Position numbers and translations under genes: made by a program
Source: an uncultured archaeon
GTDB taxonomy: Archaea > Thermoproteota > Nitrososphaeria > Nitrososphaerales > Gagatemarchaeaceae
Direction of reading: 5' to 3'
Length of the DNA: 64,000 bases
NCBI GenBank assembly: GCA_963817525.1
Contig: CAWFOU010000001.1
Location: 832,001-896,000 of the forward strand
In this document: positions 46,426 to 51,711 of the stretch, one piece after another
Layout: each line of letters opens with the position of its first letter
Position numbering within the stretch: position 1 is the stretch's first letter
The notes under the pieces: model-generated
Database searches by the model: none
What the model was told of the DNA's origin: nothing
Seen by the model: only the letters and a program-made list of their open reading frames with translations

Positions 46426-47160
46426 TCAGTTCTCCCTTATGTCCACAATCTGGCCGTCGCGGACGGAGATGACCCTGTGCGCTCGGTCCACCACGTCCGG
46501 GTTGTGCGTGATCACCACTAGCGTCTTGCCGAACACCTCGTTGAGCTGCTTCATCAGGGCCATCATCATCTCGGTGTTCTTCGTGTCGAGATTTCCTGTG
46601 GGCTCGTCCGCGAGCACGATGGTCGGATCGTTGGCGAGCGCCCTCGCGACCGCCACCCTCTGGCGCTGCCCTCCTGAGATGTGGTTGACGTTCTTGTTCG
46701 CCTTTTCGGCGATCCCGAGCCTGGCTAGCAGCGACATCGCCCTCTTCCTTGTGAGCGTCGGGTCCGCCCCTGCTATGAAGAGCGGGAGCTCCACGTTGTC
46801 GAGGACCGACATCCGCGAGAGCAGGTTAAAGTCCTGGAAGACAAAGCCGAGCTTCTTGCTCCGGATCTCCGCGAGCTCCGCGTTCGGGAGCATGGAGACG
46901 TCGACCCCGTCGATGAACACCTTGCCAGAAGTCGCCCTGTCGAGGCACCCCAGGATGTTAAGGAGCGTCGTCTTGCCGCAGCCGGATGGGCCGATTATCG
47001 CGACGAACTCGCCCTTCTCGACGGCAAAGTCCAACCCCTGCAGCGCGTAGACCGCGTCCTCCCCCGCGCCATACCTCTTCTTCAGGCCGACGACCTTGAT
47101 CGCGTACTCCTGTTCGGACGCTCTAACCGGGGCCTGGAGGACCGCAGAAGAGCCGCTCAT
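46426..47160 (-). CDS. LolD/MacB-type ABC ATP-binding protein
   Basis: GPSGCGKT, GFVFQDFNL, ISGGQRQRVAVARAL, LADEPTGNLD, ITHN. Confidence 0.93.
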   Translation of the reverse strand: MSGSSAVLQAPVRASEQEYAIKVVGLKKRYGAGEDAVYALQGLDFAVEKGEFVAIIGPSGCGKTTLLNILGCLDRATSGKVFIDGVDVSMLPNAELAEIRSKKLGFVFQDFNLLSRMSVLDNVELPLFIAGADPTLTRKRAMSLLARLGIAEKANKNVNHISGGQRQRVAVARALANDPTIVLADEPTGNLDTKNTEMMMALMKQLNEVFGKTLVVITHNPDVVDRAHRVISVRDGQIVDIREN

Positions 47161-47531: not shown

Positions 47532-47818
47532 ACCTATCGAGACCTCCGAGTCGAGGTCAGGTTATAGCGCTTTTCCTGAATGGTTCCCAAATCCTTAGTA
47601 AATCTCCCCACGCTCCGCTCTCCTTGCCCTGATGATGGTTTCGGGGCAGCGGACATTAAAGAATCTTAGGTATCCGGCCTCTGCTTCCCCCGCTACGGCG
47701 AGGCGCGACGACCCCTCACTCCCGGGCCCTAGGAATTCTAGTCTTCGAATCCGGCCTCGACGGGGCGCTGTCCGCCACGATAGCTTAAGAACAGACGGGC
47801 ATGGCTTTCGCGTCGGCA

Positions 47819-49660
47819 ATGAAGGTGGCGATAATCACGCGGGACTATCCGCCCGCGATAGGCGGAATCGCCACCCACGTCGAGGGGCTGGTCAAGGCAC
47901 TGAGGAGGCTCGGCGTCGAGGCCGACCTCTACGTGGGGAGGCACGACGTGAGGACCCTCCTCCTCCCCTTCGACATCCCGCTCAAGGAGTACGACGTCGT
48001 CCACGTCCAGAGCCTCCCCTACGGGGCGTTTGTCTGCGGTGTCCCCCTCGTCGTAACCGTTCACTCCCCCGTTCTGGAGGAGTTCGGCCACTACAGGAAG
48101 ACCCTCAAGCTCGAGTCCGTGCCGGCCATAGCCCTGGAAAAGGCGTCGCTCTCGAGGGCCAGAGCTGTCCTCGCGGTCAGCGGCGAGAGCCGCGCGGAGC
48201 TCGTGAGCAGGTACGGGGTGCGCCATGAGAGGGTCCAGGTCATAGGAAACGGCGTAGATAGCGAAAGGTTCTCGGGGCGGAGGGATCCCGACGCGGCGGC
48301 GGCGCGGAGGGTGCTCGTTGTCTCGAGGCTAGAGCCCCGCAAGAACGTGAGGGAGGCAATAGGGGCCGTCGCTGAGCTGCCTGAGGGGACTTGCAACCTG
48401 GAGATAGCGGGGGACGGGTCGGAGAGGGAGGCGCTGGTCGAGCTGGCGAAGAACATCGGCGCGGGCGACTCTGTCCACTTCCTCGGCAGGGTCGACGGGG
48501 CGTCCCTCCCCGAGGTGTACGCGCGGTCCGCAATCTTCCTGACCACCAGCGAATCGGAGGGGTTCGGGCTGTCCCTACTCGAGGCGATGGCTTGTGTTGT
48601 GAGGGGTACGCTCGTATCCACCAGTAACGGCGCCATGCCCATCGAGAACATCAGGAAGGGGACACTAGTCTTGACTCACTCAGGCAGGTATAGACCCGTC
48701 CTTCAGACCTTTGTCGGGATTCGGGGCGGAGTAATGTATGTGATCGAGACTTCGCATGGGCGCTTATGTATTACGCCGACCCATAAGTTCCTGACAAGAA
48801 GTGGCTGGATGTCCGCCGAATCTCTATACTTCGCTTGCAAGTCTGAGCATGCAGCAGAGAGGGTACATCGCCGGCTTCTTCGATGGAGAGAGTCATATGA
48901 CAATAAACATAGTAAGGCAAACGAAGACTTCGAGGCACCTAGGGACCGGGCTTGGAATCCGGCCGATGATAGAGGTCGCTCAGAACTCTCGGCGTCAGGA
49001 AGTTCTTTACTGGATAAAAGGAAAGCTCGGAGGCCGCGTCGTGCCGGATTTACCTCGACACGAATCAAGATTGGTAATCGGGGGCAGACGCTCGGTAGGT
49101 CCCATCTTAGAGACATTATTGCCACTGCTGATTTGCAAGAGGAACGTCGCGATGCTAGTTCTGGAGGTCTGCAACAGGAGGTTGTCATTCGTCCAGAATA
49201 TGCCGGAGGATTGGATTTGGTTTATCGACAAGGCGATCCAGGTGCGAATGATAAATTCGGAATTCAGCCCGGAGCGGCTTCAGAAGGGTGTCGGGAGGCT
49301 GAATGGATTGAAATCGGAAGTATTGAACCGATACAGTATGTCGGGCAAATATTCGATCTCTCCGTAGCAGCAGACAACTCATACGTAGCGAACGGCCTGA
49401 CGGTCCACAACTCCGGCTGCGCGTGCGTGGCATCTGACCTCCCTACCCACAGGGGCCTTATCGAGCATGGCGTGAACGGGATGATATACCGAAATCGGGG
49501 GGAGCTTGTCGCCTGCCTGAAGGAACTCCTATCCTCGCCGGCGAAGGTAGAGAGGCTAGGTGCGGCCGCTAGCCGGGTGGCGAGCGGGCTCACCTGGGAG
49601 AAGGTAGCAATGAAGGTAACTGGGGCCTACGAGAGTGTCCTGCAACGCCCGAAGCCCTGA
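47819..49660 (+). CDS. GT4 glycosyltransferase interrupted by an intein
   Basis: MKVAIITRDYPPAIGGI, VVTVH, VIGNGVD, SRLEPRKN, EGFGLSLLEAMA|intein|SGCACVASD, TWEKVA. Confidence 0.92.
   Translation: MKVAIITRDYPPAIGGIATHVEGLVKALRRLGVEADLYVGRHDVRTLLLPFDIPLKEYDVVHVQSLPYGAFVCGVPLVVTVHSPVLEEFGHYRKTLKLESVPAIALEKASLSRARAVLAVSGESRAELVSRYGVRHERVQVIGNGVDSERFSGRRDPDAAAARRVLVVSRLEPRKNVREAIGAVAELPEGTCNLEIAGDGSEREALVELAKNIGAGDSVHFLGRVDGASLPEVYARSAIFLTTSESEGFGLSLLEAMACVVRGTLVSTSNGAMPIENIRKGTLVLTHSGRYRPVLQTFVGIRGGVMYVIETSHGRLCITPTHKFLTRSGWMSAESLYFACKSEHAAERVHRRLLRWRESYDNKHSKANEDFEAPRDRAWNPADDRGRSELSASGSSLLDKRKARRPRRAGFTSTRIKIGNRGQTLGRSHLRDIIATADLQEERRDASSGGLQQEVVIRPEYAGGLDLVYRQGDPGANDKFGIQPGAASEGCREAEWIEIGSIEPIQYVGQIFDLSVAADNSYVANGLTVHNSGCACVASDLPTHRGLIEHGVNGMIYRNRGELVACLKELLSSPAKVERLGAAASRVASGLTWEKVAMKVTGAYESVLQRPKP
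48593..49411 (+). mobile_element. Intein (273 aa), class 1, with no in-frame endonuclease
   Basis: Block A C1-VVRGTLVST, block B LCITPTHKFLT (TxxH), block F IFDLSV..NSYVANG, block G LTVHN followed by Ser+1. Removing it restores EAMASG. Sampled lines are ~50% GC versus ~67% in the N-extein. Confidence 0.95.
48801..49367 (+). CDS. Single-motif LAGLIDADG homing endonuclease overprinted in the +1 frame of the intein (start GTG 48801 or ATG 48849)
   Basis: YIAGFFDGE helix, IEVAQ, VLYWIKGKLGG and LLPLLICKRNVA follow the order and spacing of I-CreI-type motifs (LAGFVDGDG, FQVTQ, LQPFLKLKQKQA). Confidence 0.85.
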   Translation: MAGCPPNLYTSLASLSMQQRGYIAGFFDGESHMTINIVRQTKTSRHLGTGLGIRPMIEVAQNSRRQEVLYWIKGKLGGRVVPDLPRHESRLVIGGRRSVGPILETLLPLLICKRNVAMLVLEVCNRRLSFVQNMPEDWIWFIDKAIQVRMINSEFSPERLQKGVGRLNGLKSEVLNRYSMSGKYSISP

Positions 49661-49714: not shown

Positions 49715-50947
49715 ATGGGCGAGACTACGAAGCCGCTTCATGACTGGGTGCTCTACGTCACGAACCACTTCACCCATCTTGTCGTCGAGGCGCAGGCGGC
49801 TTCTCCGAGATACCACCTCGCGAGAAAGCTCTCGGAGAAGGGGCAGAAGCTGCTGGTATACTGCCCCATCGGGCGTCATGTTGGGAGTCCTCTCCGCGAC
49901 TTTGTCATCAACCTCTGCCCCAAAAGAATCGTTTCTGGCTACACGGTATACCTCTTCCCACCCGTGATCGTCAGCCCTTCGAGCGCGACCACTCCCTTGA
50001 CTCTGATCATGGGAAGCCTCTTCATCCTTGCCTACCTCACGCTCACGCGAATCAAGGTCGCAGCTCAATACAGCACGACGATTCTCGTGGGGTCAGTGGC
50101 GGCGGTGGTGAGGATGAGAAAGAAGATTCCGCTCGTGGCGAACTACGGTGACCCCGACTTCGCAAGGGAACGCGGGCTAGCAAGACAGGGCTTCAAGTTC
50201 TGCGAAGACCTAGTCATGACCAGACGAAACGCCTTCGCCATGGTCTACGTTGACGAAGTCGTGGGCGAGTACATCAAGGGCAACTTCCCCGTCGAGAGGA
50301 CGCTCTTCCTTCCGAATGGTGGATACGAGGCCGGCTTTGTCCCTCCAATGCCTGATTCTTCGGGCGTTGTCTCGCTGAGAAAGAAGCTTGGATTGGAGGG
50401 CAAGTCAGTGATACTCTATGCAGGTCAGCTGACCGCGGTCTATCGCCTCGACATCCTGGTCTCGGCCGCGCCTTCCATAATCTCGCGGGTTCCAACCGCG
50501 AAGTTTGTGATAATCGGTAGCGGGCCTACCTCCAGAACGCTGAAGCTAGCTGTAAAAGAAGCCCATCTCGAAGACTATTTCGACTTCACTGGCGCCGTTC
50601 CCTACGATGAGCTCAGCCCCTTTCTCGTCCTCTCTGACCTTTGCGTTCAGCTGCTAGACGACTGGTGCATGGGCACCAAGGTCGTGATGTACATGGTCCA
50701 TAGGCGGCCGGTTATCTCAAGCGGCGGCTGGTTCCATAGGTACGGAAGGTTTCTCCGAAACGGAGAGAACTCGATTCTGATCCCTCCTAGCGTCGAGGCC
50801 TTTGGTGAGGAGGCGGTCAAAGCTCTACAGGATCCCTTGCGAAGGGCCAAAATCGGGGAATCGGCCTGGACTACGGTCCACCGATACACTTGGGACGAGC
50901 ACGCGGAAGAGACTCTGAAGCTGCTCCACGCTTCGATTCTCGGCTAG
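49715..50947 (+). CDS. GT4-family glycosyltransferase
   Basis: LPNG, ILYAGQL, FVIIGSGP, FTGAVPYDEL, GTKVVMYM..RPVIS, YTWD. Confidence 0.85.
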   Translation: MGETTKPLHDWVLYVTNHFTHLVVEAQAASPRYHLARKLSEKGQKLLVYCPIGRHVGSPLRDFVINLCPKRIVSGYTVYLFPPVIVSPSSATTPLTLIMGSLFILAYLTLTRIKVAAQYSTTILVGSVAAVVRMRKKIPLVANYGDPDFARERGLARQGFKFCEDLVMTRRNAFAMVYVDEVVGEYIKGNFPVERTLFLPNGGYEAGFVPPMPDSSGVVSLRKKLGLEGKSVILYAGQLTAVYRLDILVSAAPSIISRVPTAKFVIIGSGPTSRTLKLAVKEAHLEDYFDFTGAVPYDELSPFLVLSDLCVQLLDDWCMGTKVVMYMVHRRPVISSGGWFHRYGRFLRNGENSILIPPSVEAFGEEAVKALQDPLRRAKIGESAWTTVHRYTWDEHAEETLKLLHASILG

Positions 50948-51711
50948 TCGCCACTCGCGGCTGTTTCCTGCTTCTGCGCAATGCACCAAGTCATCATGTA
51001 GTTCATGGAGTCCGTGTAGCCATAGATTCCCAGGCGCTCCGCCTCTGCTTTGGTGACAGGGCTCGTCCCCTCCGGACCCTTATCCGAATGGTTGTAAGTG
51101 AGGCGGAGGACTTCGGCGTTACCCCACCCGTCGGACGAGATGACCTTGAAATGCTCGAAGAGCGACTTGAATCCATCCGGAGAGAACCGGTAGTAGTCGC
51201 CGTAGTTCCCGCCATGGTGTATCGGGTAGATGAACACGGATGTGCAGACGCAGATGCCGTTGGGCTTGAGGACCCTCCGGACTTCATCCACGGCTCTCCA
51301 CGGATGCTGGAGATGCTCCACAATCTGATCGAGGACGATGATGTCGTACGAGTCGTGGGCATAGGGGAGCTTCTCCGCGTCAATCCGCGGATAGTCAGGC
51401 GCGACCTGGACCGTCGCGCCGAAGGATTCCAACATCTTTACGATGGTGCCCTCGCTGCCGCCGATTTCAGTGGCCACTTTTCCCCTGAAAAATTCAGGGC
51501 CAAGGCTGTTTGAAAGAGTCGAAAAGATCGCGTTATACATCGGGATCCTCAACCAGTTTACTGATGCGTTCATTCCGGACGTGCCAGCGTTCTTGCTACC
51601 CATGGTTGCCTTGTGCCTTGGGATCGGCGTGAGTTGAAACTCGAGCCCCATCTTCTCGAACGCGGCCTGCAGAGCTTTGTTTATCCTGAAGAGCGAGTCC
51701 TTGGTGCTCAT
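50944..51711 (-). CDS. Class I SAM-dependent methyltransferase
   Basis: EIGGSEG, DAEKLPY..DSYD, VEHL, RVLKPNG, DYYRFS. Confidence 0.85.
   Translation of the reverse strand: MSTKDSLFRINKALQAAFEKMGLEFQLTPIPRHKATMGSKNAGTSGMNASVNWLRIPMYNAIFSTLSNSLGPEFFRGKVATEIGGSEGTIVKMLESFGATVQVAPDYPRIDAEKLPYAHDSYDIIVLDQIVEHLQHPWRAVDEVRRVLKPNGICVCTSVFIYPIHHGGNYGDYYRFSPDGFKSLFEHFKVISSDGWGNAEVLRLTYNHSDKGPEGTSPVTKAEAERLGIYGYTDSMNYMMTWCIAQKQETAASGD

Follow-up and report, generated by a model that had tools for sequence, protein, structure and literature searches.

We analysed a stretch of 64,000 nucleotides (hereafter the window) from an uncultured soil archaeon of the Gagatemarchaeaceae (GenBank assembly GCA_963817525.1, contig CAWFOU010000001.1, positions 832,001 to 896,000 of the forward strand), which lies within a 2.8-Mb metagenome-assembled genome (MAG). 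Our subject is a glycosyltransferase gene that is interrupted by an intein, together with a second coding sequence that lies inside the intein in another reading frame. The gene occupies positions 47801 to 49660 of the window on the forward strand and is a single open reading frame (ORF) of 619 codons, the two ends of which match GT4 glycosyltransferase domains in Pfam (Glycos_transf_1, E 8.4e-30; Glyco_transf_4, E 7.4e-23). The intein was located at 48593 to 49411 (819 nucleotides; codons 265 to 537, 273 codons in all) and is open throughout in the frame of the gene, here called frame 0. It separates an N-extein of 264 residues (47801 to 48592; assigned from Pfam Glyco_transf_4 and Glycos_transf_1), which ends in GFGLSLLEAMA, from a C-extein (49412 to 49660; assigned from the ORF translation and from orthologues with an empty site), which begins SGCACVASDLP with the +1 serine. 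The boundaries are exact, because six orthologues of the same genus read uninterrupted across them as LEAM[SA]|S.

Compared with Pfam on its own, the intein scored above the cut-offs of both Intein_splicing (37.5 bits; cut-off, 35.8) and Hint_2 (32.4 bits; cut-off, 28.4); with the whole precursor as query, the Intein_splicing score was 34.3 bits, slightly under the cut-off. Four copies of the intein are known (see below), each of 819 nucleotides, and a four-way alignment showed that all of them carry the first cysteine (C1, here TGT at 48593 to 48595), TPTH at block B, a C-terminal VHN and the +1 serine. We take TxxH, His-Asn and a +1 Ser/Thr/Cys to be the block motifs of inteins. The Hint-N part with blocks A and B extends from 48593 to 48847, and the Hint-C part with blocks F and G (...FDLSVAADNSYVANGLTVHN) from 49320 to 49411. 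The intervening stretch of frame 0 (48848 to 49318) is a linker of 157 codons, rich in R, A, G, E, S and D, with no match to any domain and none to an endonuclease. A first-pass annotation, made from the letters and a list of their ORFs, had described an intein frame open from C1 to HN|S around a filler lacking endonuclease motifs, and ORF and Pfam analysis confirmed this at the same positions.

The endonuclease was instead found in the +1 frame, where the first-pass annotation had placed it. This frame is closed by a TGA at 48792 to 48794 that is present in all four copies, and opens thereafter into an ORF that runs to a TAG at 49365 to 49367, its tail overlapping the Hint-C part as far as 49367. 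Counted from a GTG at 48801 to 48803, the ORF encodes 188 residues (48801 to 49367, forward strand) and, counted from an ATG at 48849, 172 residues; the translation holds YIAGFFDGE (residues 22 to 30), IEVAQ and LLPLLICKR. A large intein of the canonical kind, in which a DOD endonuclease with two LAGLIDADG motifs is in frame, was rejected, as the endonuclease is in the +1 frame and possesses one motif. The G+C content of the intein is 0.50 to 0.54 as against 0.65 to 0.68 in the upstream part of the gene.

Relatives of the +1 protein were collected with an exhaustive HMMER search of 1.84 billion representative sequences (cut-off E <= 1e-3). This returned 66 matches, most of them 118 to 230 residues long, the size of free-standing single-motif enzymes. 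A profile built from 43 of these matched I-CreI (E 7e-33), I-CvuI and I-MsoI over their whole length. The AlphaFold model of the +1 protein (predicted local distance difference test score, pLDDT, 89.5; predicted template modelling score, pTM, 0.85) has an alpha-beta-beta-alpha-beta-beta-alpha core, for which the best Foldseek matches were I-MsoI, I-CvuI and I-CreI; I-TnaI and the archaeal I-Vdi141I were also matched, all with a probability of 1.00. Target-normalised TM-scores to the first three ranged from 0.63 to 0.79, and sequence identity to solved members of the family from 18 to 23%. The motif reads YIAGFFDGE in three copies and YIAGFLDGE in the fourth, the acidic residue that ends it (E30) is kept in all four, and K113 is invariant across all 43 aligned relatives. 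We take E30 and K113 to correspond to the catalytic aspartate and the active-site lysine of I-CreI, respectively, an equivalence that is assumed rather than computed. Profile and model thus support the earlier proposal that the predicted +1 protein is a single-motif LAGLIDADG endonuclease of the I-CreI type and adopts the corresponding fold.

Modelled as two copies, the +1 protein scored 0.73, as against 0.24 for the best control; this mark was attained by 20 of 30 proteins whose solved structure is a pair and by 1 of 23 whose solved structure is a single chain. Between runs, at least 97% of contacts were shared, with a partner pLDDT of at least 78, and the predicted interface is symmetric and runs through the LAGLIDADG helix (residues 16 to 30). 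Because dimers of I-CreI are among the solved structures, the result may reflect recall of, and likeness to, these dimers rather than independent evidence. I-CreI, I-MsoI and I-CvuI, which are encoded in group I introns, and the archaeal I-Vdi141I share with the +1 protein the single motif, a length of about 160 to 190 residues and the fold. The predicted symmetric dimer through the motif helix and the pseudo-palindromic candidate target described below would be further likenesses to the I-CreI family. Members of that family reside in introns or are free genes, whereas the present ORF lies inside the coding sequence of an intein, and their motif ends in D-G where this one ends in E-S; its activity is a prediction.

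In four independent assemblies, the gene holds the intein at an identical site and the endonuclease at an identical frame offset: the genome of the window (G000), a second species of the same genus (G012, locus L002, equal to L015) and two metagenome contigs with the same arrangement (L013 and L014). In the second species, the gene is open over 610 codons and the +1 ORF has 199 codons, 71% identical to that of the window. The four inteins align with no gap at a nucleotide identity of 72 to 79%. Near-identical proteins from further sources differ from two of these at 1 position (P0068, from L013) and at 2 positions (P0069, from L014), and a fifth endonuclease ORF, 74% identical, was found on a 1.1-kb contig (P0001). 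A search with the intein region returned only the four known alleles along with P0071 and P0072, two ordinary two-motif inteins that have the Hint parts alone in common with it.

A displaced frame might in principle be produced by two compensating indel errors, near 48840 and near 49325, in a gene whose endonuclease is truly in frame. In keeping with this, the MAG consists of 15 contigs and its contamination is put at 8.75%, and a homologous in-frame form does exist elsewhere (P0004, see below). The junctions were therefore checked, as the first-pass annotation had proposed, using Logan contigs (four public soil runs, two studies; one run possibly being the window's own sample) aligned to 48400 to 49430. 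Across this interval no inserted or deleted letter was found in the contigs of the four runs, and both junction zones were bridged, with records 1, 2, 6 and 9 spanning 48751 to 48918 and records 3, 8, 10 and 15 spanning 49054 to 49438. Because these contigs are free of indels, and because three further assemblies from different sources, alignable with no gap, show the same offset, two compensating consensus errors are excluded. Such errors would also leave unexplained, in all four copies, the absence of some seven stop codons that are expected in frame 0 (see below). We consequently rejected this account, the probability of which we consider negligible. The only base difference seen in the Logan contigs was T>C at 49162, inside the overlap; runs X1, X2 and X5 read C, X3 has no coverage there, and the difference is either one between strains or a slip of the consensus. 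Two contigs from run X5 match just 48557 to 48591 (35 nucleotides that hold an EX7E-type motif just upstream of the insertion point), beyond which their sequence is unrelated; they probably derive from glycosyltransferase genes of other organisms and not from an empty allele of this gene.

The four copies were then compared by codon position. Variation peaks at the third position of frame 0 over 48593 to about 48818 and again over about 49328 to 49411, whereas over 48848 to 49313 the peak shifts to frame-0 position 1, corresponding to position 3 of the +1 frame. Between the genome of the window and that of the second species, differences at the three frame-0 positions numbered 19, 15 and 33 in the Hint-N part and 73, 35 and 26 in the overlap. 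The test that the first-pass annotation had proposed, for a conserved offset and for variation at synonymous sites of the +1 frame, was thus favourable. Ratios of non-synonymous to synonymous substitution (dN/dS; pairwise Nei-Gojobori estimates over the four copies) followed the same pattern. In frame 0, they were 0.10 to 0.23 for the Hint-N part (taken as 48593 to 48799) and 0.03 to 0.11 for the Hint-C part, while in the overlap they were 0.09 to 0.22 for the +1 frame (dS 0.7 to 1.7), 1.9 to 2.9 for frame 0 and 0.96 to 1.28 for the +2 frame. It follows that the endonuclease is conserved as a protein, and that the frame-0 filler is not.

Although its encoded protein is not conserved, the filler contains no stop codon. 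Over 48849 to 49319, 39 of the 157 codons of the +1 frame begin AA, AG or GA and 23 codons end in T, yet the two are never adjacent in the order that would create a frame-0 stop; the probability of finding zero such pairs is (1-39/157)^23 = 1.4e-3. The count made by hand for the first-pass annotation (39 of 157, 23 and none) proved exact. Extended to start at 48801, the count gives 42 of 173 codons, 30 ending in T and again no pair (P ~2.4e-4). The endonuclease frame was also resampled under three schemes (synonymous-codon resampling, synonymous permutation and shuffling of codon order; 3000 resamples per sequence per scheme). Against 0 stops observed in frame 0, the mean expectation was 5.9 to 7.9, and for each of the four sequences between 0 and 1 of 3000 resamples were free of stops. 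The +1 frame has no stop over 173 codons in any of the four copies, and the other four frames of the overlap stretch hold 2 to 18 stops. Since zero stops are found where about seven are expected, frame 0 must be translated through, which is the sole reading that we can offer and agrees with the earlier suggestion that this frame is selected to stay open. As judged from these comparisons, it is well supported that the region is dual-coding, with the +1 frame under purifying selection and frame 0 kept free of stops. Overprinted genes are hard to prove and rarely annotated by gene callers; here, the call is unusually clean, as each of two frames is marked by selection in its own way, selection changes frame at the boundaries of the intein blocks, and the four copies align gaplessly.

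These data also bear on the possibility of a relic, in which the endonuclease, once thrown out of frame, ceased to be produced and a decaying +1 ORF remains within what is de facto a mini-intein. Homing endonucleases commonly decay after fixation in the course of the homing cycle, and the similar divergence of intein and exteins would accord with such a history. Nevertheless, a dN/dS of 0.09 to 0.22 at a dS of 0.7 to 1.7 and 173 codons free of stops in four of four copies are not expected of an untranslated remnant, and both the acidic residue of the motif (E30) and the invariant K113 are kept. We therefore regard a relic as very unlikely.

Next, we considered how two products might be made from the one stretch of DNA. 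An NTG codon at 48801 is kept in all four copies (GTG in the window; GTG, ATG and GTG elsewhere), as read from the alignment and the ORF lists, while the frame-0 residue that overlaps it varies (S, G, N and S) and its codon always ends in T. It is the only start position ahead of the LAGLIDADG motif that is common to the four copies; the ATG at 48849 is unconserved. The TGA at 48792 to 48794 falls within the Leu-Thr codons of block B, and its conservation may for this reason be owed to frame 0 alone. In the Hint-N stretch immediately before the NTG (48713 to 48800), synonymous variation is lowered, with third positions invariant in 11 of 29 codons as compared with 5 of 40 in 48593 to 48712 (Fisher p = 0.02), and an invariant CATGGGyGCTTATG lies within it at 48756 to 48770. 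As a guess, this stretch could hold an internal promoter or initiation signal that gives rise to a near-leaderless message for the endonuclease. Of the two routes named by the first-pass annotation, an internal start is thus the better reading, while a +1 frameshift is the poorer one: the 5' junction zone (48818 to 48862) is the least conserved DNA of the element, inspection of the four-way alignment by eye (no formal scan was made) revealed no slippery motif shared at either junction, and frame 0 is open, all of which disfavour programmed frameshifting.

Two forms of recoding were weighed against these observations. In the first, the ribosome would shift by +1 near 48840 and back near 49325, yielding a canonical intein in one chain and no separate protein. 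P0004 shows that a chain of Hint, endonuclease and Hint is viable, and a clear ribosome-binding signal is lacking before the +1 ORF, both of which would suit this scheme; it would however require two programmed shifts, one of them at the poorly conserved 5' junction and neither at a slippery motif that we could see, and it gives no reason why frame 0 should be open over 157 codons or why the NTG at 48801 should be conserved. We judge it highly improbable. In the second, some ribosomes would slip by +1 within Hint-N, and a fusion of N-extein, Hint-N and endonuclease, terminated by the stop of the +1 frame, would be the active nuclease. No internal initiation signal would then be needed, and the +1 ORF does open just 3 codons before the NTG. 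On the other hand, the TGA at 48792 would confine the shift to 48795 to 48850, where no conserved shift site was seen, and the fusion would burden the dimer-forming helix (interface residues 16 to 30) with some 330 extra residues. This, too, appears unlikely.

We consider it probable, with fair confidence, that the element is a bipartite, non-canonical intein, comprising a splicing precursor in frame 0 and a separately translated, homodimeric endonuclease in the +1 frame. Frame 0 would run from the N-extein through blocks A and B, a 157-codon linker of which nothing is required except the absence of a stop, and blocks F and G into the C-extein; we infer that this precursor splices in the manner of a mini-intein with a large disposable loop, restoring the glycosyltransferase. 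The endonuclease would be a separate polypeptide of 188 residues, most likely initiated at the NTG at 48801 of a message that is internal or leaderless. This polypeptide would pair as a homodimer and cut intein-less alleles near LEAM[SA]|S, whereupon repair of the cut allele would copy the whole element in.

The distribution of the element was assessed by searching 23 genomes of the genus for orthologues of the gene (E <= 1e-40). Eight of the 23 possess one: two with the intein and six with an empty site, LEAM[SA]|S, from which the 819 nucleotides are absent. The N-extein of the window is 68 to 77% identical to the orthologues in seven of the 22 other genomes. In a tree of 10 extein sequences, the intein-bearing L013 is sister to the empty L017 (97/98) and the intein-bearing L014 is sister to the empty L023 (80/82); the remaining forks are weak. 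The G+C content at third codon positions (GC3) is 0.46 to 0.64 in the intein and 0.75 to 0.90 in the exteins. The low GC3 of the intein and the interleaved tree fit an element that is not simply an old resident of its site. No conflict between intein and extein similarity could be resolved among the four taxa, and horizontal transfer is for this reason argued only from the interleaved tree and GC3. Pseudo-palindromic symmetry, with 4 to 8 of 11 positions matching, is seen in the six empty sites about a centre that lies 5 nucleotides upstream of the insertion point and was the best of 21 tried. Such symmetry would be expected of the target of a homodimer whose site is destroyed by insertion, and is suggestive of one.

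Several observations weigh against the interpretation as a bipartite intein. As a single sequence, the +1 ORF matches Pfam LAGLIDADG_1 marginally (E 1.2e-4; 23.3 bits against a cut-off of 23.1) and I-MsoI weakly (E 0.0056), the strong matches being those of profile and fold. The structural check that had been proposed for both frames was favourable for the +1 ORF, with its LAGLIDADG_1 match and pLDDT of 89.5; in frame 0 it was favourable as to the Hint profiles and unfavourable as to the model, the AlphaFold prediction of the intein (from a 4-row alignment) having a mean pLDDT of 34.5, with the Hint parts also poor and the linker at 21 to 30. Being poor throughout, this model informs neither on the fold of the Hint parts nor on disorder of the linker. 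Every known copy belongs to a single gene in a single genus-level group, and for that reason the four are not independent evolutionary samples. For a promoter, the sole grounds are the reduction in synonymous variation (p = 0.02) and an invariant stretch that contains TA, and inspection by eye of the four-way alignment upstream of 48801 revealed no Shine-Dalgarno-like sequence. The nucleotide identity of the inteins (0.72 to 0.79) is about that of the exteins (0.71 to 0.79), a similarity that leaves old vertical descent with precise losses possible. Finally, the palindrome count was chosen from 21 offsets on related sequences.

The origin of the arrangement was examined through the 66 relatives of the endonuclease, among which one embedded in an intein was found. 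This protein, P0004, is a metagenomic sequence of 727 residues with a weak match to a terminase large subunit (22.2 bits against a cut-off of 22), and its intein is collinear with that of the window: Hint-N is 36% identical to frame 0 (E 7e-12), the endonuclease is 28% identical to the +1 ORF over 156 columns (E 3e-18) and Hint-C, at residues 344 to 366 of P0004, is 39% identical to frame 0 (E 0.002). Its Intein_splicing score of 23.6 bits is below the cut-off of 35.8. In P0004, all three parts of the intein lie in one frame, and a single LAGLIDADG motif was seen by eye. P0004 thus differs from the present case in its host gene, in its continuous frame and in the length of its intein (298 residues as compared with 273). 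A single-motif domain within a one-chain intein is unusual, and its pairing would have to take place between two precursor chains or between two inteins after excision. The first-pass annotation had named close homologues with the endonuclease in frame with the Hint blocks as evidence against its out-of-frame reading; all four copies in the GT4 gene carry the endonuclease out of frame, and P0004 is a homologue at 28% identity in another host gene.

Searches for further in-frame forms yielded little. Of the other long HMMER matches, P0003 (919 residues) was inspected and set aside as a tandem-repeat sequence that looks spurious, and P0014, P0017, P0024, P0037 and P0059 (317 to 350 residues, each with two matched stretches) were left out. 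A word-indexed search for longer proteins with the endonuclease in frame found none among 1875 candidates, which is weak evidence, and scans of viral contigs for P0002 and P0004 gave no match.

The genome of the window contains seven other matches to the single-motif LAGLIDADG profile, six in frames of 161 to 268 residues and one in a frame of 534 residues. Five of the seven were inspected (L025 to L029; C7:792825-793238, C1:676726-677031, C7:1045284-1045664, C7:814453-814629 and C7:778017-778325) and none of these overlaps a longer frame. Similarly, no overlap with a longer frame was found for the LAGLIDADG ORFs of relatives at the seven of ten loci inspected, the other three having listed no open frame, probably owing to orientation. 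The inspected ORFs look free-standing. Free ORFs of this kind are also present in further genomes of the genus, and one such ORF (L004) has an N-terminal stretch resembling a C2H2 zinc finger.

As proposed in the first-pass annotation, the arrangement would have arisen when an endonuclease gene of the intron type entered a mini-intein out of frame. Such an invasion is favoured by the free-standing size of most relatives and by the five inspected matches in the genome, which stand alone. Because P0004 carries a homologous endonuclease in frame, descent by frameshift from an in-frame form, or the reverse, is as possible as invasion; the proposal is accordingly not established, and invasion of a mini-intein by a free gene and a change of frame in a fused form, in either direction, are equally open. 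Nor does collinearity with P0004 prove a single lineage, because the Hint parts also resemble those of ordinary inteins (P0071 and P0072). We tentatively entertain the idea, and think it rather less than an even prospect, that the GT4 intein and the P0004 intein are two states of one lineage, caught at the step between an overprinted dimeric endonuclease and a fused in-frame one. If so, the pair would show directly that inteins gain or release endonuclease domains by one-base changes of frame, a single-motif enzyme would be of use to an intein only when dimeric, whether as a free protein or through two precursors, and the free-standing single-motif LAGLIDADG genes of the same genome would be the donor pool.

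Separately encoded intein endonucleases have precedents. According to papers that cite it, a 1998 article by Gorbalenya entitled 'Non-canonical inteins' is said to describe such an endonuclease. The novelty implied by the first-pass annotation is accordingly not supported, intein endonucleases in another frame or on the other strand being already in print. The nearest case is the intein of cyanobacterial dnaX (DNA polymerase III gamma/tau), for which a preprint by Phillips, DeSimone and Gogarten describes a LAGLIDADG endonuclease in an overlapping +2 ORF (bioRxiv 10.64898/2026.09.14.751524). As outlined there, the two cases are alike in the purifying selection on the endonuclease frame, the raised omega in the extein frame and the sporadic occurrence of intein-bearing alleles; the in-frame stretch of the dnaX intein is predicted to be disordered. 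They differ in host gene and frame, a cyanobacterial replication protein and the +2 frame as opposed to an archaeal GT4 glycosyltransferase and the +1 frame. Judging from its description, the dnaX endonuclease possesses two LAGLIDADG motifs and was overlaid on the monomeric I-WcaI, whereas the present one has one motif and is predicted to form a homodimer. In the same account, Shine-Dalgarno motifs are reported upstream of the dnaX endonuclease, while none is evident here, and its authors found no in-frame relative, in contrast to P0004 here.

For non-canonical inteins of actinobacteriophages, Gosselin, Arsenault and Gogarten report anti-sense enzymes of LAGLIDADG and of VSR-like type as well as an endonuclease VII-like enzyme in sense frame 3 (bioRxiv 10.1101/2025.01.02.630785). 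As presented in that preprint, these inteins too encode splicing domain and endonuclease as separate ORFs in the same DNA; they reside in phage genes, as distinct from the sense +1 LAGLIDADG ORF in a cellular archaeal gene described here. Its authors, the Gogarten group, put forward a model in which inteins are invaded by free-standing endonuclease genes that indels may afterwards bring into frame. The two preprints describe the Synechocystis dnaX case differently, as anti-sense in one (bioRxiv 10.1101/2025.01.02.630785) and as a +2 ORF in the other (bioRxiv 10.64898/2026.09.14.751524). A further parallel is the ShiLan insert, described as hiding an HNH endonuclease in another frame and as having no splicing domain (PMC11855218). 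By that description, the insert is likewise free of stops in the host frame and its endonuclease has a GTG start a few codons into the overlap; it stays in the host protein, whereas complete Hint blocks flank the overlap here, and its enzyme is of the HNH rather than the LAGLIDADG type.

The architecture is thus rare, real and conserved, and already described in kind. New here are the archaeal host, the GT4 host gene, the single-motif, dimer-type enzyme and the in-frame homologue in a terminase-like protein; in the literature searched, with the supplements of the actinobacteriophage preprint outside its scope, we found no archaeal case, no glycosyltransferase case and no sense-strand single-motif case. 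With this element, an architecture known from cyanobacteria and phages is extended to archaea, and to a host gene that is non-informational. A dimer-type endonuclease could not work as a single in-frame domain, and the intein and its in-frame relative form a pair on which the model of intein origin termed 'splicing first, endonuclease later' can be tested. It would also offer a compact mini-intein scaffold that, as its sequence suggests, tolerates an arbitrary loop of 157 residues, and a predicted new enzyme of the I-CreI family with a candidate target. By extension, inteins entered in databases as 'mini-inteins' or 'degenerate' may hide active endonucleases in other frames.

The genome as a whole is rich in inteins. 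Twenty-five matches to Intein_splicing (E <= 0.01) fall in about 14 long open frames of 623 to 1813 residues, for example at C1:935531-935761, C7:452736-453038 and C1:1130879-1133989, and some frames hold several, which suggests multiple inteins per gene. When the endonuclease profile was run on the genome of the window, no match fell inside long frames.

The neighbours of the GT4 gene include a second GT4-type glycosyltransferase of 410 residues (49715 to 50947, forward strand), a class I S-adenosylmethionine-dependent methyltransferase (Methyltransf_11; 50944 to 51711, reverse strand) and an ABC-transporter ATPase (46426 to 47160, reverse strand), and on account of these the gene can be placed in a cluster for glycosylation or surface polysaccharide. 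Downstream of 49700, the G+C content drops from about 0.65 to about 0.57.

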